64,000 nucleotides of DNA from positions 4,047 through 68,046 of the forward strand of contig JBNMHA010000001.1 in NCBI GenBank assembly GCA_050872545.1, in the 5' to 3' direction. The DNA is from Spirochaetales bacterium. GTDB taxonomy: Bacteria > Spirochaetota > GWE2-31-10. A model generated the notes under the pieces. The model worked only from the letters and a program-made list of their open reading frames with translations, made no database searches and was not told where the DNA came from. Within the stretch, counting starts at the first letter, position 1, and each line of letters starts with the position of its first letter. Below, piece after piece: positions 1,319 to 19,671 of this stretch. Made by a program: the position numbers and the translations under genes.

Positions 1319-1326
1319 TTCTGTCT

Positions 1327-2100: not shown

Positions 2101-2108
2101 TTCTGCCT

Positions 2109-2275
2109 CCGTTAAAACTTAACACAAAGAGCGATCGCTGCACCGTTCGGCGTTGCATGTTGTCTGCGGCTTCTGTCACACGAAAGTTCGCCTTTGTTCC
2201 CGTAAATCAGCCCAATGTCTACCGAAAGTCGGTTCATTTCACCTTTCAGCCAAGCCCTCGCACCTAATGCCCCGA
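2109..2275 (-). repeat. Conserved 3'-end module, copy 3 of 4
   Basis: Nucleotide identity to the other three copies. Confidence 0.85.
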
Positions 2276-3014: not shown

Positions 3015-3022
3015 TTCTGCCT

Positions 3023-3190
3023 CCGTTAAAACTTAACGCAAAGAGCGATTGCTGCACCGTTCGGCGTTGCCTGTTGTCTGTGGCTTCTGTCACACGAAAG
3101 TTCGCCTTTATTCCCAGAAGTCAGCCCAATGTCTACAAAAAACCGATTCATTTCACCTTTCAGCCAAGCAGACATTGCGAGACTGGTTAT
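3023..3190 (-). repeat. Conserved 3'-end module, copy 4 of 4
   Basis: Nucleotide identity to the other three copies. Confidence 0.85.
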
Positions 3191-3799: not shown

Positions 3800-3811
3800 T
3801 TCTGCCTCCTG

Positions 3812-6800
3812 TTAATCAAAAAGATTAATTAATTTATCATTCATTAAATTAGAATCTATTTCATTCATAGCATCATTAAATACACAATAAATTCTAGTAG
3901 TTTGATGATCATAAAAACCATCCCATCCAAATGTAAAAGAATTTTCCAAAGGAATTGCTTTTTCGATTTGATACCAGTATTTCTCAATATTTTTGTCGTA
4001 ATAACTACGCCCTGCACCAGAAATAAATCCATCAATACTAATATTATTTGAGAAATCAACAAAGTGAGCTTCATCTCTGTAAAGAATATGGATTTCTTGA
4101 GAAATCTTACATGCTGCTAATCGAATTAACTGAACAGTTAAATATGTAAAATCTAAAAAAGTTACAGCTAGCGCAATCTGAAGTGCAATTTCCCAAGAAT
4201 AATTATAAGGCGGAATAATTCCATCATCAAAAGCCGGCGGAACAATTTCATCATCATTACTATAAAAATTGTACATTTTTACCTTTTTGTCGCCGCTGAG
4301 TGAATTAAATGTCTTATTCGGAAACTTAAAGCAATCTCTGTTAGATTTTTCGTTGTCTCCTATATCTGCTGTACTTGTTCCTACGCCGTTCAGTCCTACT
4401 ACAAATGGGATTTCACTCGCAAACTTTTCCATTTTGTCAGTTTGCAGATTGTGCATTGTGATGTTATTCACCGTTACACCGTGCGAATGCCCTATAAGTA
4501 TTATTTGAGACGCTCGGCAGTAAAAAAGGTTTGCCGCTACTCTGTCGTATATAAATTTTTCCAGTGCTTCGGCTGCCGCGTCACGGTATTCATAATTGTT
4601 TTCGCCCGACCAGTTGAAGTAATACGCTTTGTCATTTTGCGAATAATCCAAATTCAAAGCTTTTGCTACAGACGGCTGTTTAAAAAATTTTGCGGTATTT
4701 CCTTCACCGTTTTCGCAAAACATGTAATAGTTTCCATGCTGTTTAGCTTCAGTTACCCACTTATAAAAAAGCGTTCCATGTGTAAATATTACTATTCTGC
4801 TTGTAGGTACATCGTCAAGTTCCGATAAAAACTCCCGGCTGTCATCAGCTTCTTCCGTTACTTCAAACTTTACCACACTGTAATCTTTATACAATTTGTA
4901 CGTATAACTTGTAGTTACGCCTTGGCTGTCTTTTTGTGAACTGACATAAAGAGCCCAATATCCTTCGGTAGCTTTCCTTAAATCTTCCCTAAATGTGTCA
5001 TGCTCATAACCGCTTCCGTTGCTGGATGATGTATGTGATTTCATGTGAATGGAAACAGTTTTCACATATCTAAAATATGACGTACACAATTCATTGCCAT
5101 TTTTATCTAAAAGCGGAACACCTTTTACAAACTTTTTTGTAGGAATATACGGCTGTCCGTTTTTTTGCAGGTAGTATTCGGTATCGCCAATGCGAAAAAG
5201 ATTATTTGAATGAGGTTCACCGCTTTGGTAACAGGCATTCCGCACTGCATTTTCAGTCGCTGCAATTCTGAATTCGCCGACATTGTTTGAAAAAATTGCC
5301 GGAGTCTGCGGTACTTCTATTCTTACTTCCGGTTCATCCGCATCAATAAAATACATATCATTTTCAGGTTCTTTCTGTTCCACTCCGGCAAAGTCCGCCA
5401 GTTTCGCCACAATCTGCATTGCGGTTTCATTTGCCTTTATGTAATCATTATCCCGAAATGTTTTTTGCAGTTTTTTTGTGTCATCAAGCAAATCAATTTG
5501 TTTCCTTGTATCTTCATCCGCCGCCAAACTGACAAGGCGCGAAGTCAATTCCCACAACGTTATGCCCTCTGCACGCCGTACACTGCTTACGTTAGTTGAA
5601 ACTCCTATTAAATCAAAAGTTACTTCCTCATCACGGTCTGCATTTACAAGATACGGAAAACTCAATGTCATATTCGCACCGGCAGCCAATTCTACAGATG
5701 TAGATTTTAAATCCATTTGGACAAACGACGGAATATTTTCAAAACGCAGACATATCACATCAGTTTGCTTTGCATTATTTGTAACTGTTACTTTTATCTG
5801 GCTTTTTACACCTTTAGTGTAATAACCGACATTTGATTGAATCGAAAAATCGGCATCTACAACATTCAGTTTAATGACATGTTCACGTTTTACTTTAGGA
5901 TTGTTTGCCGAACTGCAAATTATCTTTACTTCAGTACTTTTCTTTTCAGTAAGCTTCACTGCAACTTCTATTGTTTCATGAGATTTTCCGTTTAATGCAG
6001 CTGTATTTTTAGATAACTTAACTTGGGCAAAATCAGAATCCGCACTGATAAAATATGAATCCTTAATATCCGTATTATTATGAATTACGATCGATGTTAA
6101 AATTTCTGCATTCAACGGCAATGACAATGAAGAATTTCCAGATATTGTGAAATCCGCATTGCTTGGATTAAACGTAATAGTAAAACTCTGCTTTTGCGCT
6201 GGATTGTTCACTGATGTCAAAGTAATTACTGCTTCTTTTGATGACGTTTCGTTTAGTTTCGCTTCCAATACAAGACTTTTGCTTTCACCGGATTTCACAG
6301 CAAATAAATTTGTCTCGGCTGATATTTCAAGACCAACGGATGGTTCTGTTTCTACTTTGTACGTATCATCAACATCACCATTATTTGTTATATTCAGTGT
6401 CTGCCGAGTACTTTCATTCACTGCTACAAACAACGCATTATTTCCAGATATTGTGAAATCCACGTTACTTGGATTAAACGTAATAATGAAACTTTGTTTC
6501 TGTGCCGGATTGTTCACTGATGTCAAAGTAATTACTGCTTCTTTTGATGATGTTTCGTTTAGTTTCGCTTCCAGCGCAAGACTTTTGCTTTCACCGGATT
6601 TCACGGCAAATAAATTTGTCTCGGCTAATATTTCAAGACCAGCGGATGATTCTGTTTCTACTTTGTACGTATCATCAACATCGCCGTTATTTGTTATGTT
6701 CAGTGTCTGCCGAGTACTTTCGTTCACCGCAACAAACAGCGCATTATTTCCAGATATTGTGAAATCCGCATTGCTCGGGTTAAACGTAATGGTAAAACTC

Positions 6801-8392
6801 TGCTTTTGCGCTGGATTGTTTACTGATGTCAAAGTAATTACTGCTTCTTTTGATGATGTTTCGTTTAGTTTCGCTTCCAGTGCAAGGCTTTTGCTTTCAC
6901 CGGATTTCACTGCAAATAAATTTGTCTCGGCTGATATTTCAAGACCGGCGGATGATTCTGTTTCTACTTTGTACGTATCATCAACATCGCCGTTATTTGT
7001 TATATTTAGCGTCTGCCGAGTACTTTCATTCACCGCAACAAACAACGCATTATTTCCAGATATTGAAAAATCCGCATTGCTTGGGTTAAACGTAATAATG
7101 AAACTCTGCTTTTGTGCCGGATTGTTTACAGATGTCAAAGTAATTACTGCTTCTTTTGATGATGTTTCGTTTAGTTTCGCTTCCAGTGCAAGACTTTTGC
7201 TTTCACCGGATTTCACTGCAAATAAATTTGTCTCGGCTAATATTTCAAGACCAACGGATGGTTCTGTTTCTACTTTGTACGTATCATCAACATCGCCGTT
7301 ATTTGTTATATTTAGCGTCTGCCGAGTGCTTTCATTCACCGCAACAAACAGCACATTATTTCCAGATATTGTGAAATCCACGTTACTTGGATTAAACGTA
7401 ATGGTAAAACTCTGCTTTTGCGCCGGATTGTTCACTGATGTCAAAGTAATTACTGCTTCTTTTGATGACGTTTCGTTTAGTTTCGCTTCCAGTGCAAGGC
7501 TTTTGCTTTCACCGGATTTCACGGCAAATAAATTTGTCTCGGCTGATATTTCAAGACCGACGGATGATTCTGTTTCAACTTTGTATGTATCATCAACATC
7601 GCCATTATTTGTTATGTTCAGTGTCTGCTGAGTACTTTCATTCACTGCTACAAACAGCGCATTATTTCCAGATATTGTGAAATCCGCGTTACTTGGATTA
7701 AACGTAATGGTAAAACTACAGTTTTCATTTGAATCATTTTCCGAAACTGCGGTAATATCGACTTTGCCGATTCTTGATTCCGGCAGCATAACGCTGTAAT
7801 CTACAGTTTCATACTCTCCGGAAGAGATTTTAACTTCAGTTTTTGTCAACGTTAAGCTAACATTTTCACATACCGCCGACAGCGCATATTTATCCGAAAA
7901 TTTTCCGGTATTTCTTACAATGAAATTTCCGGTCAATTGTTTATTCACCGGCAAATACAAAGATGAATCTCCGATTATCTCAACTTTTGCCGGAGTAGAA
8001 ATATCTACAGTCAACAAAATTTCTTTTTTATTCGGACGAAAAGATTCCCCGCCTACGACAAATATAGCTGCCTTGTAACTTCCTTTTTTCAAAGCTTTTA
8101 CGCAAAATATCGCTTCTTTCTTTTCACGTGCATTTACAGAAATTTTTTCTGCAAACTCCAAGTTGAAGCCTTCAGATTTTTCTGCTGACAAATAAAAATC
8201 CTGCGAATAATCCTCTTGATTTTCTATAAATACAGAAAGCAATTGCTCTGTTTCCAACGGCATTTTTTTAAGCAGCTGATTTTCCGACAGTGCAAATTTG
8301 TACTCTCTGTGAGTTTTCACTTCGTTCCATTGTTCCTGCGTACAGCTGAAAATAAACAGCAGCATTATCGACAACAAACTATAGTATTTCAT
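3812..8392 (-). CDS. Giant surface lipoprotein (1526 aa): lipobox, Ig/CARDB-like region, 5.3 near-identical 102-aa tandem repeats, C-terminal alpha/beta-hydrolase (lipase/esterase-like) domain
   Basis: Signal peptide with lipobox IFSC. The unit FTITFNPSN...AQKQS is repeated. The C-terminal region carries HG (FTHGT) and the nucleophile-elbow GHSHG motif typical of lipase/esterase folds. The gene overlaps its neighbours in the operon. Confidence 0.6.
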   Translation of the reverse strand: MKYYSLLSIMLLFIFSCTQEQWNEVKTHREYKFALSENQLLKKMPLETEQLLSVFIENQEDYSQDFYLSAEKSEGFNLEFAEKISVNAREKKEAIFCVKALKKGSYKAAIFVVGGESFRPNKKEILLTVDISTPAKVEIIGDSSLYLPVNKQLTGNFIVRNTGKFSDKYALSAVCENVSLTLTKTEVKISSGEYETVDYSVMLPESRIGKVDITAVSENDSNENCSFTITFNPSNADFTISGNNALFVAVNESTQQTLNITNNGDVDDTYKVETESSVGLEISAETNLFAVKSGESKSLALEAKLNETSSKEAVITLTSVNNPAQKQSFTITFNPSNVDFTISGNNVLFVAVNESTRQTLNITNNGDVDDTYKVETEPSVGLEILAETNLFAVKSGESKSLALEAKLNETSSKEAVITLTSVNNPAQKQSFIITFNPSNADFSISGNNALFVAVNESTRQTLNITNNGDVDDTYKVETESSAGLEISAETNLFAVKSGESKSLALEAKLNETSSKEAVITLTSVNNPAQKQSFTITFNPSNADFTISGNNALFVAVNESTRQTLNITNNGDVDDTYKVETESSAGLEILAETNLFAVKSGESKSLALEAKLNETSSKEAVITLTSVNNPAQKQSFIITFNPSNVDFTISGNNALFVAVNESTRQTLNITNNGDVDDTYKVETEPSVGLEISAETNLFAVKSGESKSLVLEAKLNETSSKEAVITLTSVNNPAQKQSFTITFNPSNADFTISGNSSLSLPLNAEILTSIVIHNNTDIKDSYFISADSDFAQVKLSKNTAALNGKSHETIEVAVKLTEKKSTEVKIICSSANNPKVKREHVIKLNVVDADFSIQSNVGYYTKGVKSQIKVTVTNNAKQTDVICLRFENIPSFVQMDLKSTSVELAAGANMTLSFPYLVNADRDEEVTFDLIGVSTNVSSVRRAEGITLWELTSRLVSLAADEDTRKQIDLLDDTKKLQKTFRDNDYIKANETAMQIVAKLADFAGVEQKEPENDMYFIDADEPEVRIEVPQTPAIFSNNVGEFRIAATENAVRNACYQSGEPHSNNLFRIGDTEYYLQKNGQPYIPTKKFVKGVPLLDKNGNELCTSYFRYVKTVSIHMKSHTSSSNGSGYEHDTFREDLRKATEGYWALYVSSQKDSQGVTTSYTYKLYKDYSVVKFEVTEEADDSREFLSELDDVPTSRIVIFTHGTLFYKWVTEAKQHGNYYMFCENGEGNTAKFFKQPSVAKALNLDYSQNDKAYYFNWSGENNYEYRDAAAEALEKFIYDRVAANLFYCRASQIILIGHSHGVTVNNITMHNLQTDKMEKFASEIPFVVGLNGVGTSTADIGDNEKSNRDCFKFPNKTFNSLSGDKKVKMYNFYSNDDEIVPPAFDDGIIPPYNYSWEIALQIALAVTFLDFTYLTVQLIRLAACKISQEIHILYRDEAHFVDFSNNISIDGFISGAGRSYYDKNIEKYWYQIEKAIPLENSFTFGWDGFYDHQTTRIYCVFNDAMNEIDSNLMNDKLINLFD
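6100..7717 (-). repeat. In-frame tandem repeat array inside the giant lipoprotein gene: 306-bp unit, about 5.3 copies, more than 95% identical
   Basis: Plus-strand shadow ORFs in 6147..7680 recur with a 306-nt period. The protein repeat 'ITFNPSN(A/V)DF(T/S)ISGNN' occurs six times. Confidence 0.9.
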
Positions 8393-8939
8393 TTTCCCTC
8401 CTTATTGTGAAATCAACAACCTTACACTTAATAAAAGGACGATAACTTATTGAACTGACATAACCATTGCCGAAATATGTACTGGCAGATAAACATTGCT
8501 GCACAACAAACGGATAAACAGATAAGGCTTTGTATATTCTGTTATAAAATGAACTTTCCGATTCAGTCACCGGTTCAAATTTTCTGCTAAATGTTATCAA
8601 TTGATTTTCCCGATAGAATATTTCAATTCCGTTGTCTTCACCGTAAACCATACACGGAAGCTTCTTAGGTGTTCTGTTCAATCGATACAAACTGCCGCTT
8701 TCAGAAATAAAAATAAGTTCTTGTTTTGAAAGTCCGTTTACATCGTAAATGTCATTAGCCTGATTTACTAACTTTACAGATGTCAAAGTTTCTTCATCGA
8801 CTTCACTTTCAATTTTTGCCGTATTGTCCACTTGTACTGTAACATTGTCTTCTTCCTGCAAAGTTTTATGGCTTTTCCAAGTACACCCGACATTGATGGC
8901 CACAAAAAGCAGCACAATTATTAACTTAGAAAAAATCAC
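8379..8939 (-). CDS. Hypothetical lipoprotein
   Basis: ORF of 186 aa with signal peptide and Cys (INVGC). Its start and stop overlap the flanking genes, consistent with operon coupling. Confidence 0.5.
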   Translation of the reverse strand: MIFSKLIIVLLFVAINVGCTWKSHKTLQEEDNVTVQVDNTAKIESEVDEETLTSVKLVNQANDIYDVNGLSKQELIFISESGSLYRLNRTPKKLPCMVYGEDNGIEIFYRENQLITFSRKFEPVTESESSFYNRIYKALSVYPFVVQQCLSASTYFGNGYVSSISYRPFIKCKVVDFTIRRENEIL

Positions 8940-10300
8940 ATTTCCTCCCCATAAAAAAAATTAATCTGATAAACAGCAAACTCGTATTTCGTATCGAGAG
9001 TTTTCTTCCTTGCTTCGATTATCCGTTCAATTGCATTTTTTATTTCGTATACTTCGATAAGCCCTTTCTGAAATGCCTCTGTAACTTCCCGATACTCTTC
9101 TTCCGACAATTTTTCATACGCTTCTAACGTTCTTATTTTTTTTCTGTAGTTTTGAATTTGTTTTGTATGCAAGGCATTTTTGTATTCTTTGATTTCTTGA
9201 TGTTCTTGAAGTTCATACTGAAGTTTCTTCTGCTCTTTCCTCAAGTCGCACAATCGCAGCTGTTGTTTGGAGAACGGTAAGGAAAAATTCAAAGGCATTT
9301 TTACAACGAAATTCAAGCTTCCGACTTTGTCATTCCAATATTTGCCGCTATTTTCAAACCAATCTCCTAACCAAGGATTGCGTGTATAACTGGGTGAAAA
9401 CAAGTAATTTACTTGAAGTGACGGAATGAAATGCGCAATTTCTTCCGCAATATTAAGTTTCAGTTCTTTTTGCCGCAACGAAAATTCTTCTTCACGATAT
9501 TCAGAACATGTTTTTTCATCAAAAAAACTCTCATTATGAAAATCTTCTAATTCGCCTGAAAAATAAATATTTTCTTCTCCAAGCAAAAAATTAAGGAACA
9601 TAAGACTTTTCTCATACAAGTTTTCTGTTTCATCAACTTCCTGTTGCAATTCATTTTTTTTCAATTCTGAATAAATAGTTCTGTATTTTTCCAAGCGATC
9701 ATCACATAAAGCCAGCATATTGCAAAATTGTTTTGTCAGTTCTGCATGTTCATTTGTCACTGCATTTTTTGCTTTATGATAAAAAACAGCAGCACAACCG
9801 GATAAAGCTGTTTTCCTAATTTCATTTTCAGCAAGTTCAAATGAAAGTTTGTTCTGCTTTAATAAATTTAACTTACTGCACAGTGACAAAATTGAAGCCA
9901 CGTTAAATTCCCAAACTGAATATGCTGTAAAATTTACACTCCAACGAGGTTTGGTCACATCAAAAGAGTTTGGGATAACTTCATCATATCCATTTGCAGT
10001 CGCACTTAATAAGTTAGGAAGCAATTCTTCGTATGTCGTTGTTCTGTCTTTATCACTCAAATTAGAACGAGAAAAGCTGCCGCATATTCCAAACTGCGGA
10101 ATAAACTCATCAAAACTTTCGATTATTTTCAGTTTTTTCTGCAATATGCTAATATTTTTTTGTTTAAGCGAAAGGCAATGTTTAACTGCCGTATCTGCGG
10201 CTTCTGCCGGAGTGATTAAAACATTTGCTCCGGCAAAAACTACAGAAAACAGAAATACTGAAATTGAAATAAGTTTTTGCATCGACAAAAATTCTTTCAT
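8936..10300 (-). CDS. Secreted coiled-coil protein, possibly a TolC-like outer-membrane channel
   Basis: ORF of 454 aa with a signal peptide. Long helical heptad-like segments alternate with short beta-like stretches, resembling the outer-membrane efflux protein architecture. The family assignment is uncertain. Confidence 0.35.
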   Translation of the reverse strand: MKEFLSMQKLISISVFLFSVVFAGANVLITPAEAADTAVKHCLSLKQKNISILQKKLKIIESFDEFIPQFGICGSFSRSNLSDKDRTTTYEELLPNLLSATANGYDEVIPNSFDVTKPRWSVNFTAYSVWEFNVASILSLCSKLNLLKQNKLSFELAENEIRKTALSGCAAVFYHKAKNAVTNEHAELTKQFCNMLALCDDRLEKYRTIYSELKKNELQQEVDETENLYEKSLMFLNFLLGEENIYFSGELEDFHNESFFDEKTCSEYREEEFSLRQKELKLNIAEEIAHFIPSLQVNYLFSPSYTRNPWLGDWFENSGKYWNDKVGSLNFVVKMPLNFSLPFSKQQLRLCDLRKEQKKLQYELQEHQEIKEYKNALHTKQIQNYRKKIRTLEAYEKLSEEEYREVTEAFQKGLIEVYEIKNAIERIIEARKKTLDTKYEFAVYQINFFYGEEM

Positions 10301-10315
10301 TTCATCACACCCTGT

Positions 10316-10669
10316 TTAGTCGGCACGAACAAAAGTGCCCCAACTCCAAAGTGTCAACTTTCCGCCTGACAATGTGTAAGCGTAAGTTTCATCTTTGTCT
10401 TTAAAGTTGATTATACCGCTTTCGGATTTATCAATTTCCCACTCAAAGCTATTTGAAACCGAACCATTTTTGTAAACATAGTCCACTTTCATTTTGTCAT
10501 TAGATGTGAATTCCAGATTATATTTCTCATACACAGAAAATTCTTTGCTATCAAAATCTTCCGGAACCCATTTCCCAATAAGTCCGCATTCCACTCCAGC
10601 AGGAGTACAGCTCGCCAATGCAAAAATAAATGCAACAGTAATAAAACAAATTTCTAATCCTCTTTTCAT
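10316..10669 (-). CDS. Small 'GKW-motif' lipoprotein (117 aa), first gene of operon 1
   Basis: Lipobox LASC followed by the motif TPAGVECGLIGKW. It is paralogous to 11321..11701 and 63449..63814. Confidence 0.6.
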   Translation of the reverse strand: MKRGLEICFITVAFIFALASCTPAGVECGLIGKWVPEDFDSKEFSVYEKYNLEFTSNDKMKVDYVYKNGSVSNSFEWEIDKSESGIINFKDKDETYAYTLSGGKLTLWSWGTFVRAD

Positions 10670-10706
10670 AGTTAATATCCTTGTAATAAAATTTCACGAA
10701 ACTGTA

Positions 10707-10738
10707 AGATTAGCCGGCTATTGCAATCTCGCTGTCAA
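10707..10738 (-). promoter_or_regulatory. Candidate sigma70-like promoter for operon 1
   Basis: On the minus strand: TTGACA (10738-10733), a 20-nt spacer, then TAATCT (10712-10707), about 40 nt upstream of the RBS AAGGAT and the ATG at 10669. The spacer is longer than optimal. Confidence 0.25.
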
Positions 10739-10770
10739 GTTTTATCGTTCATGAAAAGCGATTTTGCAAG

Positions 10771-10815
10771 AAAAAAAACTTCCCGGAGGTCAAGAAAATT
10801 CTCCGGGAAGTTTTT
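10771..10815. terminator. Bidirectional intrinsic terminator (A8, CTTCCCGGAG, 12-nt loop, CTCCGGGAAG, T5)
   Basis: Perfect 10-bp GC-rich inverted repeat flanked by an A-run and a T-run. It separates operon 2 and the repeat element from the operon-1 promoter. Confidence 0.65.
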
Positions 10816-11027
10816 CTTGGTAAATTTTTTGTTAGTTATATTGATTTTGAAATTAATACAAGTATAATTAAAATTTTTTGTTATAAACAAATCAAGACTT
10901 TATACCAATTTAGTATTATTTACAAAATGTGTGGCAATTTTCTTTGCAGGGGACAGACCTCAATTCTAACTTGGGATACAAGTAAATTCGGGTGGATATG
11001 AAAGTAAACTAAGGGACCGACCTATAT

Positions 11028-11205
11028 GCTATTTTAGAATTAAAGTCTGTCCCTTGTGTTAATGAGATCTCCGGGTCAAGCCCGAAGATGACATAAAATT
11101 TCACAAATTACTTTGTTATTCCCTAACTTGCGTCCTATTGTCATTGCCCGGTGCGACCGGATAATGACATTAGGCTTGTATGGTGTCAGACCTATATGCT
11201 ATTTC
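11028..11205. repeat. 187-bp structured repeat unit (1.1 copies) with internal inverted repeats
   Basis: Contains GGTCTGTCCC pairing with GGGACAGACC upstream, the hairpin ATCTCCGGG-tcaag-CCCGAAGAT, and CCTATTGTCATT-19nt-AATGACATTAGG. Confidence 0.7.
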
Positions 11206-11320
11206 CACATATAAATACAGCGCAAAAAGCATAAAAAAAGCGGCAAGAAATTTTTGTTTCTTACCGCTTATTTCAAAAAGGATTATGTTTATTATTTGCC
11301 GACAAAACAATTTTCCAAAA

Positions 11321-11701
11321 TTAACATGTTCGTTCTAAAACTAAAGATCTGGAGAAAATTAAGTATCCGCCGCTTAAAATACATGAAATTTCTCCGTCCG
11401 GAAGTCCTTTGCCCTCACCGTCAATACACTCAATTTCCAAAATTGTTCCATTAAAAATGCAGCCATCGCCTTCTTTACTTGTACCTGTTATTTTATATAC
11501 CTCAGAAAGTTTTTCACTTCCGTTATCCCAAGAATAAACGAAAGTATCATCTGCATAAAATTCTATAATATACGTAACTCCGCCGGATTCGCCGCTCCAT
11601 TTTCCCAATAAATCGCAACTAACGCCAGCACAAGTACACGATATTATCAAAAAAAACAAAGCAACCGGCAGCAATGCAAAAAATCCAATTTTACTTTTCA
11701 T
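11321..11701 (-). CDS. Small 'GKW-motif' lipoprotein (126 aa), last gene of operon 2
   Basis: Lipobox IISC followed by TCAGVSCDLLGKW. Its signal-peptide coding sequence and RBS are identical to those of 11711..12712. Confidence 0.6.
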   Translation of the reverse strand: MKSKIGFFALLPVALFFLIISCTCAGVSCDLLGKWSGESGGVTYIIEFYADDTFVYSWDNGSEKLSEVYKITGTSKEGDGCIFNGTILEIECIDGEGKGLPDGEISCILSGGYLIFSRSLVLERTC

Positions 11702-11710
11702 TGTCGTCTC

Positions 11711-12712
11711 CTAAATCAAAGAACATGTCAAATTTATCATGTTATATTTGTATACTTTATCTGTCCAAGCTTGAATTATGTAGATATTATCCCCATGCCG
11801 TGCGCTATCCGTATCTTTCGTTTTTATTGAAACTCTATCTTTTTCAACACCGCTTCTATCGAATGTTACAATCGATTTATTTGTTAAAAGAGTAATGAAA
11901 TCATCATTTTGATAGAGTGAATTCACACTAAAAAAGCCTCCTGTAGAAAAAACTTTTTCTACATTTAAAACATTATCAATTACCGAATAACGAAACAGAT
12001 CAACATCACGCCTTTCTCTTTCCCCATTATTTTCAGATACAACAAAAGTTCCGAGCAAATAAGGATCATAAAAATCTAAATACAAATAATCTTTATCAAA
12101 GCACGATAAATCAACAAATTTCTTTTGTGTAAGGTTATAAATATCGCTATACCCTAAACTATAAAGCAGAGAAACATAAACATTATTACCATTATGACCG
12201 GCAAATTTAGTCAAATACATTTCGCCTCCCGGCAGTGTCTCGTAGCGTATCTTTCTTGTTTGTGCATTATACACCGCATAAGTCACTGGAACATCTTTGA
12301 ATCCGGGAACACATGGTGCAATCCAAAGTTCATTATTTACATACGTAAAACATTCTGCAACTCTGGAAAGTTCAAAATGGAGTTCCTGTACTTTCCCGGT
12401 CAACGGATTCAAGCGGGCTATACGACCGTTTACAGTTAAAAAATACACGCTTTCATCAAAACTTTTATCATAAAAGAAATCACAAATTATACTTTCCGGG
12501 AATTTATACGTATATATCGCAGTTTCGGTTTTGGTATCGAAAGCAATTATTTTATGGCAATTGTCATCCCATCGGGATGTTAAGAAAATTGTATTTTCAT
12601 CAACATTTATTGGTTTGAAAGACGGAAACGGTGACAACGGTGCTTCACAAGACGTTATCAAAGAAAACAAAGCAAGCAGCAGCAATGCAAAAAATCCAAT
12701 TTTACTTTTCAT
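11711..12712 (-). CDS. Paralogous lipoprotein family member 1 (333 aa)
   Basis: Lipobox ITSC. The N-terminal ~180 aa and the C-terminal RHGDNIYIIQAWTDKVYKY.MINLTCSLI are shared with 12722..13735. A 9-nt intergenic gap precedes it. Confidence 0.6.
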   Translation of the reverse strand: MKSKIGFFALLLLALFSLITSCEAPLSPFPSFKPINVDENTIFLTSRWDDNCHKIIAFDTKTETAIYTYKFPESIICDFFYDKSFDESVYFLTVNGRIARLNPLTGKVQELHFELSRVAECFTYVNNELWIAPCVPGFKDVPVTYAVYNAQTRKIRYETLPGGEMYLTKFAGHNGNNVYVSLLYSLGYSDIYNLTQKKFVDLSCFDKDYLYLDFYDPYLLGTFVVSENNGERERRDVDLFRYSVIDNVLNVEKVFSTGGFFSVNSLYQNDDFITLLTNKSIVTFDRSGVEKDRVSIKTKDTDSARHGDNIYIIQAWTDKVYKYNMINLTCSLI

Positions 12713-12721
12713 TGTCGTCTC

Positions 12722-13735
12722 CTAAATCAAGGAACATGTCAAATTTATCATGTCATATTTGTATACTTTATCTGTCCAAGCTTGAATTATGTAGATATTA
12801 TCCCCATGCCGTGCGCTATACTCACCTTTTATGTCTATTGGAACTCTAGCTTTCTCTCTATAATTATTTTTTTTATCAAAAGCAATGAATGAATCTGTAG
12901 TCACATAAACTATAACATCATCATTTTGATAAAGTGAATTCATATTATAGAAACCATCAGCAAAAAAAAGTTTTTCTACACTCAACACATTATCAGTTAT
13001 CGAATAATGAAATACATCTGTATTACGCTGATTTTGCTGTTCATTCCAATGTACACAAACCATATAAGGGTCATAAAATTCTATACAAAAATAGCATTTA
13101 TTTTCCTTATCCAAACAGGATATATCCACACCTTTTTTCTGTGTAATATTGTAAATCTCTGCCGGCTGCTGTGAAATATAAAATGAAATATATGTATTTC
13201 CATTTTCATATCCGGCATATTCTTCACAAAAGATTACCCCACTCGGCAACGTTTCGTAGCGTACCTTTCCTGTTTGGGCATTATACACCGCATAAGTTAC
13301 CGGAACATCTTTGAATCCGGGAACACACGGTGCAATCCAAAGTTCATTATTTATATACGTAAAACGTTCTGCAACTCTGGAAAGTTCAAAATGAAGCTCT
13401 TGTACTTTCCCGGTTAACGGATTCAATCGGGCTATACGACCATTGAGAGTCAGAAAATACATGCTTTCATCAAAACTTTTGTCATAAAAGAAATCATAAA
13501 TTATACTTTCCGGGAATTTATACGTATATATCGCAGTTTCGGTTTTGGTATCAAAAGCAATTATTTTATGGCAATTGTCATCCCATCGGGATGTTAAGAA
13601 AATTGTATTTTCATCAACATTTATTGGTTTGAAAGACGGAAACGGTGACAACGGTGCTTCACAAGACGTTATCAAAGAAAATAAAACTAACATCGGCAAT
13701 AACAACAACACAAGAAAATTTATTCCGCTTTTCAT
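12722..13735 (-). CDS. Paralogous lipoprotein family member 2 (337 aa)
   Basis: Mosaic relative to 11711..12712. The RBS AAGGAG lies upstream. Confidence 0.6.
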   Translation of the reverse strand: MKSGINFLVLLLLPMLVLFSLITSCEAPLSPFPSFKPINVDENTIFLTSRWDDNCHKIIAFDTKTETAIYTYKFPESIIYDFFYDKSFDESMYFLTLNGRIARLNPLTGKVQELHFELSRVAERFTYINNELWIAPCVPGFKDVPVTYAVYNAQTGKVRYETLPSGVIFCEEYAGYENGNTYISFYISQQPAEIYNITQKKGVDISCLDKENKCYFCIEFYDPYMVCVHWNEQQNQRNTDVFHYSITDNVLSVEKLFFADGFYNMNSLYQNDDVIVYVTTDSFIAFDKKNNYREKARVPIDIKGEYSARHGDNIYIIQAWTDKVYKYDMINLTCSLI

Positions 13736-13926
13736 CGATTCTCCTTAGTGATAGGGGATGTCTAATAAGTTTAAGTCCTAGAGGTCATTGAGCCCGTCGA
13801 AATGACCAAATGTGGTTTCGATATAACCAAAAACTAAAGTTTTTGGCTTGCTCAAACATCGCATTTTCAACTTTTAGGACATTCCCTTTATTTAGTAACT
13901 GTTTGATACACAATTTGAAAATTACG

Positions 13927-14949
13927 CTATTCAATAACTTTCATTGAAAAATCTTCCAAATTGATTTTATAAATACTGTGAGTATCACCTTTTACGCAGT
14001 AAAAGAATCCGTCACGAACATAATTGGAAAAAGAAGATTGCATATTTAAAGAATTTGATTTTTTAAGTCTATAATTATCTTTAGCATAAACCAGAAAACT
14101 TCTTTTTTCAGGATCTATACCATAAACAAATAGATATTTTTCTGTTTCATATACTCCCTGAACTCTAATTTTTTTAATATTAAGAAGTTTATTTACTTCT
14201 AATTTTGGCACTATTGATTTTATTTTATATATAAATACTTCATCTATACTGTCTGCTACTAAAAACCCATTGTAATAATCGTACCAAGAACATTTAACAG
14301 AATTATCCAATGACGATATGTCAAGTTTTTTCTTATCTGTATAATTATATATTTCAGCTTCATCCATATATAATGGCAAGAAAACTTTATCATCCATTTT
14401 AAAAGGTGTTGCATTTAACAAAATTCCTTCCGGCAATTCTTCATAACGATACGAATCGGTAGCCGGTGTATATACAAAATATTTTACAGGGGTATTTTTA
14501 AAACCCGGATAATTCGGACTTACCCACACTTCGTTATTGAAAATTACCAAATCTTCCGGTTCTCTGATTAATTCTATATTTTTAATTTCACTCATTTTCC
14601 CGGAAGTTACATCCAGTTTTGCTGTTCGCCCATCCCCAAATATTACATATATATTGTTTTTATCTGTTTCATAATCATAGGCTACTTCATAAAGACTTAA
14701 ATTTTTATCGAATACATATCTGTAAAGAAGCTTTTGTTTATCTGAATCAAATACAATTATTTCATTTAATTCACTGCCATCTTTTGCGGTAGAGCCATCA
14801 CAATTATCAAAAACAAAAATATTTTCATGCATTTCTATAGATACATCAAACGTCGGCAAAGGAACATCTTTTTGGTTTTCCTCCATATTGCAGCCTACAC
14901 AACTTGTAAATAGACAGAATAAAGCTATGATTTTATATATAAATTTCAC
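13927..14949 (-). CDS. Paralogous lipoprotein family member 3 (about 341 aa from a GTG start)
   Basis: The ORF track starts at 14979, but AAGGAG followed by 6 nt and GTG at 14949 gives the typical signal peptide MKFIYKIIALFCLFTSC. The C-terminus ...KINLEDFSMKVIE is shared with the two upstream paralogs. Confidence 0.5.
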   Translation of the reverse strand: MKFIYKIIALFCLFTSCVGCNMEENQKDVPLPTFDVSIEMHENIFVFDNCDGSTAKDGSELNEIIVFDSDKQKLLYRYVFDKNLSLYEVAYDYETDKNNIYVIFGDGRTAKLDVTSGKMSEIKNIELIREPEDLVIFNNEVWVSPNYPGFKNTPVKYFVYTPATDSYRYEELPEGILLNATPFKMDDKVFLPLYMDEAEIYNYTDKKKLDISSLDNSVKCSWYDYYNGFLVADSIDEVFIYKIKSIVPKLEVNKLLNIKKIRVQGVYETEKYLFVYGIDPEKRSFLVYAKDNYRLKKSNSLNMQSSFSNYVRDGFFYCVKGDTHSIYKINLEDFSMKVIE

Positions 14950-14970
14950 TGTTTGTCTCCTTAGTGATAA

Positions 14971-14995
14971 CTCCCCCATAAAACAAGGGGGGGAG
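14971..14995. other. Intergenic GC hairpin with a homopolymer (C5, 9-nt loop, G7) immediately upstream of the RBS of the 13927 gene
   Basis: CTCCCCC-ATAAAACAA-GGGGGGGAG followed by TTTTATTT. A paralogous copy at 16148-16170 has G6. Confidence 0.7.
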
Positions 14996-15036
14996 TTTTA
15001 TTTAATGACTGCTTGATACACAATTTGAAAATTACA

Positions 15037-16128
15037 CTATTCAATAACTTTCATTGAAAAATCTTCCAAATTGATTTTTAAAACTGCCGGATTTTCTTCA
15101 CCTACAGAGTTTATTGTATAAACATATTTTCCAACTTGGTAAAATTGCTCCAAACTTATAGTCGGATTATATTTTTTCACATCTGGATAATGCTCCCTAA
15201 AAGAATCCAATATTTCGTTTGTTTCAGGATCATACTTTAGAATATCTTTATAAGCTTCGCCTGTATCTAAATACAAATAATCACCATACTCAAGATCTGC
15301 ATAACATACGACATCGAGTGTTTGCAGCGGCTTAGAAACTTTAAACTTTGATTCTCCAAATTCTTCAAGTTTGTACAACGTAGTTTTTGTTTCGTACATC
15401 ATTTTCTCTTCATTTCTTATTTTTTTTCTTTTTCCTACAATGCCTTTTTTGAAAAAAGAAACAAAATGAAAAGCCGTAACTGAATCATCGATTAAATCAG
15501 GAAAATAATCATTCAAATCGATATTCATATCTTTTTGCTTTGTCCAGTTATAAATATCTCTTTGTGTATATGCATTATAAACTGAATCCGCAGCTACAAC
15601 ATATATATCACCGTCATACTTAAAGGGAGAACCTAGAAATTTATACGGTTCTGAAGTAAGCTCTTCGGTTTGGTAATAATAACGATATATTTTATCATTA
15701 TGATTATCCATAAAAAGCAAGTTGTCACTTTCGAATTCAAACATAGAAACCGTTCCGCCCAATGTTGGTTCTCCAAAATATTTTATTTTAGCAGTAGCCG
15801 GATCAAACTCAGACAAACGTGCTAATTTTCTTGAATCCCTATGTCCATGATATACAAAATAGCATTTCTTCTGCTCCTTCACGTATTTAAAATCATGGGT
15901 AATGTTTTTATCTGGATCTAAATGATACCGCTTTACGATTCTATCTGTAGATAAATCAACTGCTAAAAATTGTCTGTTTTTTCCGCAATCAAAAAAGAAA
16001 TATATTGAATCAGTAACTTCTATAGGCTTAAATTCAGGAAATGAACCATCTATTTCTTCTGTACAGCAAGAAAATAAAACTAACATCGGCAATAGCAGCA
16101 ACACAGGAAATTTTATTCCGCCTTTCAT
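15037..16128 (-). CDS. Paralogous lipoprotein family member 4 (363 aa)
   Basis: Signal peptide ending LFSCC. It is about 75% identical to 16212..17309 and shares the C-terminus NPAVLKINLEDFSMKVIE. Confidence 0.6.
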   Translation of the reverse strand: MKGGIKFPVLLLLPMLVLFSCCTEEIDGSFPEFKPIEVTDSIYFFFDCGKNRQFLAVDLSTDRIVKRYHLDPDKNITHDFKYVKEQKKCYFVYHGHRDSRKLARLSEFDPATAKIKYFGEPTLGGTVSMFEFESDNLLFMDNHNDKIYRYYYQTEELTSEPYKFLGSPFKYDGDIYVVAADSVYNAYTQRDIYNWTKQKDMNIDLNDYFPDLIDDSVTAFHFVSFFKKGIVGKRKKIRNEEKMMYETKTTLYKLEEFGESKFKVSKPLQTLDVVCYADLEYGDYLYLDTGEAYKDILKYDPETNEILDSFREHYPDVKKYNPTISLEQFYQVGKYVYTINSVGEENPAVLKINLEDFSMKVIE

Positions 16129-16147
16129 CGATTCTCCTTAGTAATAA

Positions 16148-16170
16148 CTCCCCCATAAAACAGGGGGGAG
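16148..16170. other. Intergenic GC hairpin with a homopolymer (C5, 8-nt loop, G6) upstream of the RBS of the 15037 gene
   Basis: CTCCCCC-ATAAAACA-GGGGGGAG followed by TTTTATTT. Confidence 0.7.
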
Positions 16171-16211
16171 TTTTATTTAATGACTGTTTGATACACAATT
16201 TGAAAATTACG

Positions 16212-17309
16212 CTATTCAATAACTTTCATTGAAAAATCTTCCAAATTGATTTTTAAAACTGCCGGATTTTCTTCACCTACAGAGTTTATTGTATAAACAT
16301 ATTTTCCAACTTGGTGAAATTGCTCCCAACTTATAGGAGGGTTATATTTTTTCACATCTGGATAATGCTCCCTAAAAGAATCCAATATTTCGTTTGTTTC
16401 AGGATCATACTTTAGAATATCTTCATAAGCTTCACCGGTATTTAAATACAAGTAATTCCCATATTCAAAATTTTTATAACATCCTACATCAAGCACCTTC
16501 AACGGCTCGGAAACTTTAAACTTTGATTCTCCAAATTCTTCAAGTCTGTATAACGTAGTTTCAACGTCATAACGCATACTCTCATTATTTCTTGTTTTTT
16601 TCCTTTTCCCAACAATGCCTTTTTTGAAAAAAGAAATAAAATGAAAAGTTTCATTTGGAATATAATCATCAAGTAAATCAGGAAAATAATCATTTAAATC
16701 GATATTCATATCTTTTTGCTTTGTCCAGTTATAAATATCTCTTTGTGTATCTGAATCATAAACTGAATCTGCACCAACAACATATATATCACCGTCATAC
16801 TTGAAAGGAGACCCTAAATATTTATATGTTTCTGTAGTAAATTCACCTGTTTCATAATAATAACGATATATTTTATTCATATAATTATCCATAAAAAGCA
16901 AATAATCATCTTCAAGATTTAATGGAAAAACAAAACCTCCTAAAATCGGAACTTCAAAATATTTTATCTTTGCTGTAATTGGATCAAACTCTGCCAGCTT
17001 ATTCTTCCCCATTGCATCTCTATGTCCTAAATATGTGAAATAACATTTCTTTTGCTCCTTTATATAAATGAAATTATCAACAAGATTTTTATCCGGACTC
17101 AACTTGTATCTTTTAACAACTTTATCTGTAGATAAATCAACTGCTAAGAACTGTTTGTTTTTTTCACAATCAAAAAAGAAATACATTGAATCAGTAACTT
17201 CTATAGGCTTAAATTCAGGAAATGAGCCATCTATTTCTTCTGTACAGCAAGAAAATAAAACTAACATCGGCAATAGCAGCAACACATGAAAATTTATTCC
17301 GCTTTTCAT
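16212..17309 (-). CDS. Paralogous lipoprotein family member 5 (365 aa from the second ATG)
   Basis: The RBS GGAGAC lies inside the first ATG codons, which favours the start MKSGINFHVLLLL at 17309. It overlaps the upstream gene's stop. Confidence 0.55.
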   Translation of the reverse strand: MKSGINFHVLLLLPMLVLFSCCTEEIDGSFPEFKPIEVTDSMYFFFDCEKNKQFLAVDLSTDKVVKRYKLSPDKNLVDNFIYIKEQKKCYFTYLGHRDAMGKNKLAEFDPITAKIKYFEVPILGGFVFPLNLEDDYLLFMDNYMNKIYRYYYETGEFTTETYKYLGSPFKYDGDIYVVGADSVYDSDTQRDIYNWTKQKDMNIDLNDYFPDLLDDYIPNETFHFISFFKKGIVGKRKKTRNNESMRYDVETTLYRLEEFGESKFKVSEPLKVLDVGCYKNFEYGNYLYLNTGEAYEDILKYDPETNEILDSFREHYPDVKKYNPPISWEQFHQVGKYVYTINSVGEENPAVLKINLEDFSMKVIE

Positions 17310-18940
17310 TGTCGTCTCCATATCACAACATTAGTTTTTTTATTGTATATTTTTGTTCGACCATAATTCCACATGTAAAATCCTCCGGTAGATGTCCATT
17401 CCCATTTTCCTTTCCACCATTCCCACCATTTACCAGTCTTTTCCCATCTCCAATACCCAGTCGGAACCCATACACGGAACCAAGCATAACCATACTGGTC
17501 TGATGAAGAATCATAAATATCATCAGGAGTAATAATCCTTCCCACACAACCTCGAATAATTGCATGAGCAGGAAACAAAAGTAGAGCATCTAACCATACA
17601 AAAGATTGAAGAGCCGGATATTGATTTTTTACATCGGAATTCAAATCTATTCCTATACTTTTATATCCTGCATAAGGCATATAACTACAGTAAATATTTT
17701 TGGTTAAATCATATTTAAAATTATCATCATCTTCTTTGTCATTATATTTATTTACTGTATATGCTACAGCCCTTTCCATTTCTGTTTCAGAAGTACGTAT
17801 AGGTTCCAAAATTGCAATTCTTTCTCCATTAGTAAAATTTTTCAACGGTTCAAATGACGGATACCCTAAATGTTCAGGCATTCTGTCTCCCTGCAAATCA
17901 CCTTTTGATGTTTTAGGATACGCCGAGAAAACAAAACTTGTAGAATTCGTGGCATTTATCTTACCGTCTGCCATTTTCTTACCTCTTAAATCAATCAATC
18001 CAGCATGGTCGTATGTTCCATATATGCAGCCTTTACTTTTTAGTTTAGAAACCCTGCAAATAATTTGCCCTGTTTTCAATTTACCGTCTTTTATTTCTTC
18101 ATCCGTTATCAAGTTATTGCTATAATAACTGCCGCTGGAGCTGCTGCTTCGAGTTGCCATTGAATTTAGTTTTTTGTGATAGTTTTGAATCTTTTTAATG
18201 TCTATATTTTTATCCAATAAATCAGAGATTTCCATAACTTCATCTTGGTAATTCAAAAGTGCTAAAAAATGAACAAATGACGCTGCATTAACTTTCACTT
18301 CATTGTTTGCCAAAGTTGCTCTACTGTTTCTCGATTTTCTGTATGATAAATATTTTTTTATATTTAATTTTGTACTTCTGGAATTTGAATCATTATATAA
18401 TTCCATCATTGATAAATCTGCTTTAGCATCAACACTCTCATTAGCTGTTAAAATCAACTCTTCTTCAAAGAATTTTTTTTCAATCTCTTTCAACATCTCA
18501 CCTTCGGCAATTTTTGCCTGAATATAATCAGATGTTAAATCATCCTGATTTTTCAATTCCAGTGTTGTTAAATAGTGATATTCCACTTTTACATCATCAT
18601 TTGCACACGCTTCCTCAAACCCTATTTTTAATTCATCAGGCATACTCATATAGAAATCCAATAACTCTTCTTCTGCCTGAACTGTAACAAAATCTGAAGT
18701 TTCGTCTTCTTGTATTCCCCTACTTCTCCTACTTTGCGCAGACTTTATTTTTGTTAATAAATCATTTTCTAAAACTCGTTTATAATCTCTAGTTACGACT
18801 TCATTTTCTGAAATAATTTCTCTAACATCATTTTTTTCCGACACATTTTCTTTCTTCTCCGTGTTTGCCGCATCACAACCTGCGAATAATACAACTGCCG
18901 CCGATAAAACAGACAGACATAAAGCTTTACATCTTTTCAT
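17306..18940 (-). CDS. Lipoprotein (544 aa) with a possible papain-fold (NlpC/P60-like) region and a tryptophan-rich C-terminal tail, first gene of operon 2
   Basis: Lipobox FAGC. Candidate catalytic residues lie in the order Cys (YCSYM) then His (FPAHAI). The last ~45 aa contain 12 Trp (WFRVWVPTGYWRWEKTGKWWEWWKGKWEW...). The enzymatic assignment is speculative. Confidence 0.4.
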   Translation of the reverse strand: MKRCKALCLSVLSAAVVLFAGCDAANTEKKENVSEKNDVREIISENEVVTRDYKRVLENDLLTKIKSAQSRRSRGIQEDETSDFVTVQAEEELLDFYMSMPDELKIGFEEACANDDVKVEYHYLTTLELKNQDDLTSDYIQAKIAEGEMLKEIEKKFFEEELILTANESVDAKADLSMMELYNDSNSRSTKLNIKKYLSYRKSRNSRATLANNEVKVNAASFVHFLALLNYQDEVMEISDLLDKNIDIKKIQNYHKKLNSMATRSSSSSGSYYSNNLITDEEIKDGKLKTGQIICRVSKLKSKGCIYGTYDHAGLIDLRGKKMADGKINATNSTSFVFSAYPKTSKGDLQGDRMPEHLGYPSFEPLKNFTNGERIAILEPIRTSETEMERAVAYTVNKYNDKEDDDNFKYDLTKNIYCSYMPYAGYKSIGIDLNSDVKNQYPALQSFVWLDALLLFPAHAIIRGCVGRIITPDDIYDSSSDQYGYAWFRVWVPTGYWRWEKTGKWWEWWKGKWEWTSTGGFYMWNYGRTKIYNKKTNVVIWRRQ

Positions 18941-18977
18941 AATTAATATCCTTGTAATAAGATTTCACGAAATTGTA

Positions 18978-19009
18978 AGATTAGCCAGCTATTGCAATCT
19001 TATTGTCAA
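18978..19009 (-). promoter_or_regulatory. Candidate sigma70-like promoter for operon 2 (copy of the 10707-10738 element)
   Basis: TTGACA (19009-19004), 20-nt spacer, TAATCT (18983-18978), inside the duplicated module. Confidence 0.25.
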
Positions 19010-19041
19010 GTTTTATCGTTCATGAAAAGCGATTTTGCAAG

Positions 19042-19086
19042 AAAAAAAACTTCCCGGAGGTCAAGAAAATTCTCCGGGAAGTTTTT
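19042..19086. terminator. Bidirectional intrinsic terminator (copy of 10771-10815)
   Basis: A8, CTTCCCGGAG, loop, CTCCGGGAAG, T5. It would terminate the mrp-plus-repeat transcript. Confidence 0.65.
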
Positions 19087-19288
19087 CTTGGTAAATTTTT
19101 TGTTAGTTCTATTGATTTTGAAATTAGTATAATTATAATAAAAAGTTTTTAATTATCAAATAATTAAGATTTTATGCCTATTTAGTATTATTTACAAAAT
19201 GTGTAACAATTTTTTTGCAGGGGACAGACCTCAATTCTATTTTAAGATACAAGCAAATTCGGGTGAATATAAAATATACTAAGGGACA

Positions 19289-19671
19289 GATTAGTATCCC
19301 ATCTTGGGATTAAGGTCTGTCCCTTGTGTTAATGAGATCTCCGGGGCAAGCCCGAAGATGACACGGATTTTCACAAATCACTTTGTTATTCCCGAACTTG
19401 CTTCCTATTGTCATTGCCCGGCGTGATCAGATAATGACAATAGACTTGTATGGTGTCAGACCTATATGCTATTTCGGAATTAAGGTCTACCCCCTTGTGC
19501 TAATGAGATCTCCGGGTCTAGCACGAAGATGACGCGAAATTTCACAAATCATCTTGTTATTCCCGAACTTGCTTCCTATTGTCATTACCCGACGTAACCG
19601 GACAATGACAATAGACTTGCATAGTGTCAGATCTATATTCTATTCCGGAATCATGGTCTGTCCCTTATAAT
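19289..19671. repeat. Tandem array of the 187-bp structured repeat (units 19289-19475 and 19476-19660, plus a partial unit)
   Basis: Units are about 88% identical. Each carries the hairpin ATCT(C/T)CGGG-5nt-CCCGAAGAT and CTATTGTCATT-19nt-AATGACAATAG. Confidence 0.85.

Follow-up and report, generated by a model that had tools for sequence, protein, structure and literature searches.

The stretch analysed in this study (the window) comprises 64,000 nucleotides of contig JBNMHA010000001.1 from a Spirochaetales bacterium, and its genes from position 413 to 26568 are all located on the minus strand. In this region a gene for an Mrp-type ATPase is followed by a cluster of seven lipoprotein genes, coding for proteins of 544, 369, 363, 350, 337, 333 and 126 aa (from 18940 down to 11321), and then by a second operon in which the gene for a 117-aa lipoprotein precedes those for a 454-aa TolC-like protein (PF02321), a 186-aa protein, a 1526-aa protein and four paralogues of 256–301 aa. 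A block of 545 bases (the module), non-coding apart from a few shared codons, is present in two copies 8.3 kb apart: copy B is found between the Mrp-type ATPase gene and the lipoprotein cluster, and copy A after the cluster, upstream of the 117-aa gene. An earlier reading made from the letters alone (the sequence-only reading) had described this block as a likely mobile or recombining insulator-plus-promoter cassette. The comparisons reported here suggest that a whole intergenic region was probably duplicated locally once, long ago, to give the two copies, which would not represent a mobile element.

Comparison by blastn of window 10661–11205 with 18932–19475 gave 89.2% identity over 546 nt (709 bits, E = 0), in agreement with the approximately 90% claimed previously for the segments 10662–11205 and 18934–19475. 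The same picture was obtained from a MAFFT alignment of the two copies, and repeat finding returned their match as four families (D5, D11, D17 and D19), all with the same offset, close to 8,271 nt. All the components named by the sequence-only reading were located in both copies on the minus strand, in the order structured unit, “tail” hairpin of about 105 nt, AT-rich spacer, hairpin terminator, TTGACA and TAATCT hexamers, AAGGA at 8 nt ahead of the ATG, and the common start ATGAAAAGA (MKR). The shared 5′ untranslated region (5′UTR), ribosome-binding site (RBS) and first codons were thus as described; the homology ends after codon 3, and the downstream genes are otherwise unrelated, the 117-aa and 544-aa proteins having nothing in common beyond a lipoprotein signal peptide. 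The 187-bp period given for the structured repeat had to be corrected to 171 nt, as determined with Tandem Repeats Finder (TRF), with a period of 233 nt in other strains. The coordinates of the features are collected in Table 1.

Table 1. Location in the window of the duplicated module, its components and the adjacent features; codes beginning with L designate related loci.
Feature	Position	Strand	Remarks
Module copy A: unit, tail hairpin, AT-rich spacer, hairpin terminator, promoter-like region, 5′UTR/RBS and codons 1–3 of the 117-aa gene	10661..11205	−	Same layout in L039; other distal array in L003/L004/L028
Module copy B: part shared with copy A 18932–19475; second 171-nt unit reaches the Mrp stop codon at 19672	18932..19671	−	One-unit orthologues in L030/L031; L015/L017 with IS200
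171-nt unit A1: body of 131–133 nt with three hairpins, plus 39-nt GGGACAGACC...GGTCTG hairpin	11035..11205	−	Family D5; nhmmer E = 6e-44; gene-sense fold z = −5.3
Tandem 171-nt units B1 (19305–19475) and B2 (19476–19646)	19305..19646	−	TRF period 171, 2.1 copies, 85% matches; nhmmer E = 3e-44 and 5e-44
Tail hairpin, copy A: 19-nt inverted arms GGGACAGACYTYAATTCTA / TAGAATTRAGGTCTGTCCC around ~64 nt	10947..11056	−	In L028, tail and body repeat with a 233-nt period
Tail hairpin, copy B	19218..19326	−	Short 39-nt hairpin in its place in L030/L031
AT-rich spacer, copy A (copy B equivalent 19087–19217)	10816..10946	−	Distal part without counterpart in other species
Hairpin terminator, copy A: stem 10779–10788/10801–10810, 12-nt loop	10771..10815	both	A8/T5 runs on the plus strand; gene-sense strand with T8 following the stem
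Hairpin terminator, copy B: stem 19050–19059/19072–19081	19042..19086	both	Sequence, fold and strain comparison
Promoter-like region and 5′UTR, copy A: TTGCAA (10769–10764)-N17-GATAAA (10746–10741); TTGACA (10738–10733)-N20-TAATCT (10712–10707); AAGGA (10682–10678)	10670..10770	−	
Promoter-like region and 5′UTR, copy B: TTGACA 19009–19004, TAATCT 18983–18978	18941..19041	−	Homologous to DNA upstream of the L020 547-aa and L033–L038 544-aa genes
Gene for 117-aa lipocalin-like lipoprotein (PF13648)	10316..10669	−	First of operon 117/454/186/1526/257/300/256/301; codons 1–3 within the duplication
Gene for 544-aa lipoprotein	17306..18940	−	First of the seven-gene lipoprotein cluster (to 11321); homologues in L020 and L033–L038 share the upstream region
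Separate intrinsic-terminator-like hairpin ending the 544...126-aa cluster, just upstream of copy A	11238..11269	−	13-pair stem, then TTTTTTT

The hairpin of the module (CTTCCCGGAG-N12-CTCCGGGAAG, located between A5 and T8) contains a 10-bp stem with seven G–C pairs, and its calculated folding energy is −25.2 kcal/mol on the gene-sense strand (z = −6.3) and −27.8 kcal/mol on the opposite strand. The GC-rich stem-loop is directly followed by a T-run, as in intrinsic terminators, with T8 on the gene-sense strand and T5 on the other, and the perfect bidirectional terminator hairpin of the sequence-only reading was therefore confirmed in its structure. The promoter-like TTGACA/TAATCT pair is also present in both copies, but its 20-nt spacer, identical in the two copies and in a third species described below, lies outside the usual sigma-70 range of 16–19 nt, and no call was made for it by the promoter scan. 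An alternative pair, TTGCAA-N17-GATAAA, is found directly after the T-run at a conserved position; it has a proper spacing, and its −10 hexamer lacks the final T. Promoter-like matches as a class were no commoner than in shuffled sequence (52 found, 47.8 expected). A TTGATT-16-TATAAT match is located on the plus strand of the AT-rich spacer of both copies (10841–10868 and 19112–19139), directed away from the operons into the array, and may be a chance occurrence.

The TTGACA-N20-TAATCT arrangement is conserved across species, its spacing included, and encloses TAGCCGGCTA, a 10-bp perfect palindrome on the minus strand (10713–10722 and 18984–18993) with one mismatch in copy B. The 8-bp core of this palindrome, AGCCGGCT, is retained in the third species, and the palindrome overlaps the −10-like hexamer and may serve as an operator. 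Inspection of the sequence led us to discard a sigma-54 or MerR-type interpretation of the 20-nt spacer: there is no GG-N10-GC, and the palindrome is off-centre.

Six copies of the module from four strains were compared. The hairpin was 100% identical in all six, and a core of about 83 nt, made up of the hairpin and the next 38 nt, was identical between A and B in all the strains, bar one change in L028, while the sequences flanking it have diverged by 11–16% between the copies. At the divergence of the flanks the chance of such conservation is about 0.87^83, or 1e-5. The core would have been kept either by purifying selection or by homogenisation through gene conversion, and selection appears the simpler reading because the core is the same in all the strains. 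Since the core is fully conserved where its flanks have diverged, a common control of both operons can reasonably be proposed, and the two operons are probably co-regulated through the shared block. Of the identical control claimed by the sequence-only reading, the near-identical hairpin, promoter-like region and leader are present as described, and the control itself is plausible. The most likely working model is that the hairpin halts upstream read-through and a promoter just downstream starts the operon. At site B the hairpin would block read-through from Mrp through the array, and at site A read-through from the lipoprotein cluster; the same hairpin would thus shield both operons, and the same promoter and leader would start them. 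The perfectly conserved core would be the seat of this shared function, and, with its 20-nt spacer containing TAGCCGGCTA, it constitutes a concrete candidate regulatory site.

The identity of the AT-rich spacer was 84–87% between the A and B types and 94–99% within each type across strains. Because the spacer is more alike within type than between types, the duplication is older than the divergence of the sampled strains, with both positions fixed. Site A was occupied in L003, L004, L028 and L039 and site B in L015, L030 and L031, and no presence/absence polymorphism was detected among the strains with data, both sites being always occupied. Two contigs from a single sample, ERZ27237412, represent both sites (L028 and L030); the idea of an “empty site”, in which strains bearing an insertion sequence (IS) would lack the 544...126-aa cluster and have Mrp joined to the 117-aa gene, was accordingly rejected. 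Site A is spanned by an independent ENA contig (L039) with 99.4% identity over 7.1 kb, and site B by the independent contigs L030/L031. For both genes the Logan contigs begin 93 nt ahead of the ATG, at a distance of k−1 beyond the last difference between A and B. Short-read contigs from many samples (L005–L012, L002, L013, L016, L019, L029, L032) also end within the module or its array, at the places where a k−1 overlap with the last A/B difference predicts a break. The repeat behaves as a systematic assembly break point, which may explain why no copies were found in the scan of species-representative genomes reported below.

Close relatives of the Mrp protein (85–98%) were confined to Logan and ENA assemblies, which include gut metagenomes, and the nearest named ones were found in metagenome-assembled genomes (MAGs) of “Spirochaetes bacterium”, with 53–56% identity. 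The 544-aa protein has homologues in two further lineages. In a sister species (L020, Mrp 88%) the DNA upstream of the 547-aa gene could be aligned, weakly but still recognisably, with the part of the module between the T-run and the ATG. In the third species (L033–L038) the homologous protein is 77% identical (coding sequence, 76.5%), and the 544+361 gene pair lies in an unrelated context, beside a divergent ArsR-methyltransferase gene (e.g., L033 2469–5572); the pair itself has thus changed its genomic location between species. About 190 nt upstream of the third-species gene match the module (blastn 72–78%; nhmmer E 1e-15 to 1e-23), the best nhmmer matches covering profile positions ~105–294. 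A 24-nt block, GGCTAATCTTACANTTTCGTGAAA (GGCTAATCTTACAATTTCGTGAAA), is 100% conserved upstream of the third-species 544-aa homologues, which also keep the hairpin with its T-run (−22.3 kcal/mol) and TTGACA-N20-TAATCT; their hairpin is located in a divergent intergenic region, with no co-directional gene upstream. Because the upstream match holds despite the unrelated context, the proximal ~190 nt of the module, from the hairpin and T-run to ATGAAAAGA, are identified by these alignments as the native regulatory region of the 544-aa gene, travelling with the gene.

In the sister species the order of the operons (L020 11210–21209, compared with window 413–19671) is reversed: next to Mrp comes a 907-aa operon, which corresponds to the 1526-aa operon, and the 547-aa cluster lies beyond it. 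No 117-, 454- or 186-aa genes, no repeat array and no GC-rich hairpin were found at this sister locus, and among the related loci compared the 454-aa gene and the 117- and 186-aa genes were seen only in the present species. Because the gene order of the sister differs and these three genes are species-specific, copies A and B are interpreted as marking rearrangement junctions.

The distal part of the module is formed by an array whose unit consists of a 131–133-nt body with three hairpins and a linker, the latter being either the 39-nt hairpin GGGACAGACC...GGTCTG or the tail of about 100 nt with the same arms. In the window, one unit plus tail is found at site A and two units plus tail at site B; the site B array of L030/L031 contains one unit plus the short hairpin, and that of site A in L028 is tail-unit-tail-unit-tail (period 233 nt). 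With one to three units per array and linkers that vary between strains, the arrays have the character of the palindromic mosaic clusters described as REP/BIME and BOX. In the profile search the units were found only at sites A and B, and the loci of the sister and third species gave none. Between convergent genes of the third species (L037 4822–4870, L036 6577–6615) there is, however, a single 39-nt hairpin belonging to the GGACAGACC...GGTCTGTCC family, with the T-run TGTTTTTT after it, suggesting that this short palindrome is terminator-like, older and dispersed; in all, the unit family was seen at two loci, with this one 39-nt hairpin at a further locus. No Rfam family matched at its gathering score in the whole window, and at site B only chance-level matches on the terminator hairpin were obtained at E up to 10.

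Some copies of the unit bear disruptive changes. In the array stems, the counts of Watson–Crick, G–U and mismatched cells were 241, 51 and 11 for the gene-sense strand, as against 241, 3 and 59 for the opposite strand. From this asymmetry, any importance of the fold would seem to lie in the transcript or in the gene-sense DNA strand. Small open reading frames (ORFs) in the unit were discarded on inspection, their frames being unconserved between copies. An invertible promoter (inverton) formed by the 19-nt arms was rejected as well; the inverted orientation was seen in no strain, and the arms are separated from the gene by the terminator.

In some strains a 759-nt IS200-type element interrupts the unit at ...CTCATT(A)^ACACAAGGG..., with no target duplication. 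It was located at L015 11540–12297, L017 1549–1654, L003 1–54 and L028 1–142 (window equivalents ~19330 and ~11060), that is, downstream of Mrp in L015 and L017 and upstream of module A in L003 and L028, at the same position of the unit; the unit array is thus a repeated landing site for this element, which is absent from the window. The element encodes a 153-aa Y1 transposase (NF033573, 158.9 bits) and has subterminal hairpins at both ends. Its assignment as a REP-associated tyrosine transposase (RAYT) was rejected, with 34.8 bits against a cut-off of 80 and an element that interrupts the unit. An origin of the unit as an IS200 derivative, of the palindrome-associated (PATE) or miniature inverted-repeat (MITE) transposable element type, was also rejected, there being no similarity between IS and unit and no IS in the window.

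In the explanation that we favour, the source would be the intergenic region that separates the genes of the Mrp-type ATPase and the 544-aa lipoprotein, composed of two layers, the ~190-nt native regulatory region and the lineage-specific 171/233-nt array, joined by the AT-rich spacer. The array itself would be a transcribed palindromic repeat comparable to REP/BIME or BOX, in which the gene-sense strand folds much better than the other. In the ancestor of the species at least 545 nt of it would have been copied 8.3 kb downstream, replacing the upstream region and the first three codons of the 117-aa/TolC-like/186/1526-aa operon. Because copies A and B share the lineage-specific array and the distal spacer, the copying is placed in the present lineage, with 545 nt or more transferred as a single piece. 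Recombination or a gene-conversion tract may have effected it, with array homology at one end and ATGAAAAG microhomology at the other; the proximal boundary of the homology lies at ATGAAAAG(A), with which most lipoprotein genes at the locus start.

Several points weigh against this explanation. The microhomology mechanism is one that we infer only from the boundaries of the homology. If the two copies undergo gene conversion, this and not purifying selection could account for the perfect identity of the core. Neither candidate promoter is canonical, given the 20-nt spacer of one and the GATAAA without final T of the other. Compensatory changes in the array stems were found in 0 of 38 pairs, with counts as in shuffles, among eight closely related copies. 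Public MAGs tend to break at the module repeat, so that copies elsewhere could be missed.

Exchange of ends is also apparent among the lipoprotein genes of the cluster. In family D12 (11636–11845 and 12647–12856) the 126-aa lipocalin-like gene has its intergenic DNA and its signal-peptide start in common with the 333-aa family, and the same pattern is seen in D15 (13675–13753, 16068–16146, 17249–17327) among the 337-, 363- and 369-aa genes. The starts MKSKIGFFALL... and MKSGINF.VLLLLPMLVLFS... are common to cluster lipoproteins whose remaining sequence differs, and identical C-terminal ends (...KINLEDFSMKVIE) occur among them as well; a further shared family is D13 (13887–13973, 14997–15083, 16172–16258). 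From these matches, end-swapping or gene conversion appears to be recurrent among the lipoprotein genes of the cluster. The G+C content of the cluster region (window 11001–19000) is 29–35%, as compared with 37–40% in the housekeeping genes beyond copy B. In the second operon, the 1526-aa protein (ORF 3812–8392) contains five to six tandem repeats of 306 nt (102 aa), 89–91% identical, at window 6109–7717, and its length varies: it measures 1373 aa in L028 and 907 aa in the sister species, and in L003/L004 it is split or of reduced length.

Other origins of the two copies were considered. As direct repeats, the copies flank the lipoprotein cluster exactly, the GC content of this 7.7-kb cluster is low (29–34%, against 37–40% in the housekeeping genes past copy B), and the 544+361 pair is found elsewhere in the third species; a circle carrying the cluster and one module could have entered, by Campbell-type recombination, a module located before the 117-aa gene. 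Such an island insertion is unlikely, in our opinion. It needs a 544-type upstream region with its codons already in place before the 117-aa gene, and thus presupposes a duplication; moreover, in the sister species the 547-aa cluster occupies the same neighbourhood and no array is present, no cluster-less strain was found (sample ERZ27237412 has both sites), and the 13–16% divergence between the A and B spacers is common to all the strains.

A slightly poorer candidate is a transcribed RNA element in the core, either an attenuator leader with a promoter in the AT-rich spacer (TTGATA-16-TATAAT, 19159–19132) or a duplicated small RNA ending at the hairpin. In spacer B that promoter scores as an 11/12 sigma-70-like match and lies just ahead of the conserved tract, and the tract of A/B identity begins about 40 nt before the hairpin; the third-species hairpin, in its divergent intergenic region, has no upstream co-directional gene to terminate, and the 20-nt spacing of TTGACA/TAATCT is non-canonical. 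The spacer promoter is, however, degraded in copy A (TTTATA-15-TATACT) and unconserved in the third species, and such matches are no commoner than in shuffled sequence. Inspection of the sequence revealed no upstream antiterminator partner for the GC-rich stem, Rfam gave no family beyond chance hairpin matches, and the block best conserved across species lies downstream of the hairpin.

The mobile cassette proposed by the sequence-only reading would be a discrete insulator-plus-promoter unit, repeatedly recruited, with many copies before secreted-protein operons. It would account for an identical architecture before two unrelated operons, and the presence of the 544+361 pair with its upstream region elsewhere on the third-species chromosome, the attraction of the IS200-type element by the array and the recurrence of leader swapping at the locus are in line with it. 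Its count of copies was pursued in the window, in about 348 kb of related loci and in public collections, and yielded two copies with no defined ends. No module copy beyond the two was found in the 64-kb window and the related loci, the complete genome not being available for the search. An exact-pattern scan of 185,579 species genomes with the unit core gave one chance match, in a coding region of Prolixibacteraceae; neither the unit core nor the conserved leader block gave a match in JGI metagenomes, viral contigs gave one chance match for the unit core and none for the hairpin, and phage and plasmid collections gave no blastn match to module B. The scan for tRNA and tmRNA found none. No terminal inverted repeats or target duplications bound the module, whose distal end lies within the array and whose proximal end falls after ATGAAAAGA inside the ORFs. 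The A and B types are stable, with no presence/absence polymorphism or empty site among the strains, and in the third species the gene moves with its own upstream region, to which the proximal half of the module is native, and not the cassette alone. A portable cassette is thus very unlikely, and within the sequences covered the outcome comes close to the simple segmental duplication that the sequence-only reading had itself named as its refutation.

A collapsed or chimeric repeat in a metagenome-assembled contig, which the breaks of many short-read contigs within the module might suggest, is refuted by the assemblies of other samples that cover site A (L039) and site B (L030/L031) and by type-specific A/B differences consistent across strains, and its probability is practically nil.

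If the duplication was local, an uncultured gut spirochaete would have equipped a second, lineage-specific surface-protein operon with the upstream region of a lipoprotein gene that it already possessed, by copying this region wholesale. The array and the recurrent IS200 insertions explain the short-read assembly breaks at this locus. No new principle is involved. The case is probably that of a one-off duplication of a regulatory region in a recombination-prone lipoprotein locus with a small lineage-specific repeat family. A bolder and rather improbable proposal is that the 171/233-nt units represent an undescribed, strand-specific, transcribed palindromic repeat family of uncultured human-gut spirochaetes, acting as recombination and IS200 landing pads whose homology would allow neighbouring insulator-promoter-leader blocks to be copied before new surface-protein operons, with more copies elsewhere in the genome; if true, it would provide a repeat-driven mechanism for rewiring surface-protein expression.

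Among known systems, the repetitive extragenic palindromic (REP) elements and bacterial interspersed mosaic elements (BIME) of enterobacteria and pseudomonads are intergenic palindromic units in mosaic clusters of variable number, transcribed with the flanking genes. The present array is likewise modular, palindromic and intergenic, with a variable number of units, and is an IS target. REP elements are preferred insertion targets of some IS elements, and IS200 was not among the five REP-targeting IS families surveyed (PMC1525189). The units described here measure 171/233 nt and not 20–40 nt, they were seen at two loci and not hundreds, and the Y1 transposase is a classical IS200 TnpA within the unit, unlike the REP-flanked RAYT. 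The strain element resembles IS200/IS605 members in its Y1 transposase, subterminal hairpins, lack of target duplication and fixed short target ...CTCATT(A)^; it lies outside the window, and its tie to the module is that the unit, to which it has no similarity, offers the target.

The pneumococcal BOX element (boxA-boxB(n)-boxC) is modular and structured, with variable internal units, is co-transcribed, and is thought to affect the expression of its neighbours (PMC3049150). The present array shares with BOX the modular intergenic organisation, the variable number of units and the extensive secondary structure; there is no sequence relation, and BOX is dispersed in more than 100 copies, in contrast to two adjacent loci of one species.

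In Borrelia burgdorferi, the diverse lipoprotein genes of the erp family have a conserved promoter, operator and leader and are co-expressed, a situation ascribed to recombination onto a single promoter and leader (PMC10016077). As with the erp “upstream homology box”, unrelated lipoprotein genes of a spirochaete are preceded here by near-identical upstream DNA that extends into the start of the coding sequence. The erp loci are many, at an allelic site on cp32 prophage plasmids, whereas the present locus has two chromosomal copies, with no phage or plasmid match to the module; the erp genes share the whole leader peptide, and here three codons are shared. The copied block further includes a hairpin terminator and a repeat array, which erp does not, and the two systems are likened by architecture and not by sequence homology. 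Within these limits, the duplicated module would provide a clean example of a promoter whose original owner is identifiable, in parallel with the shared promoter and leader of the Borrelia erp genes.

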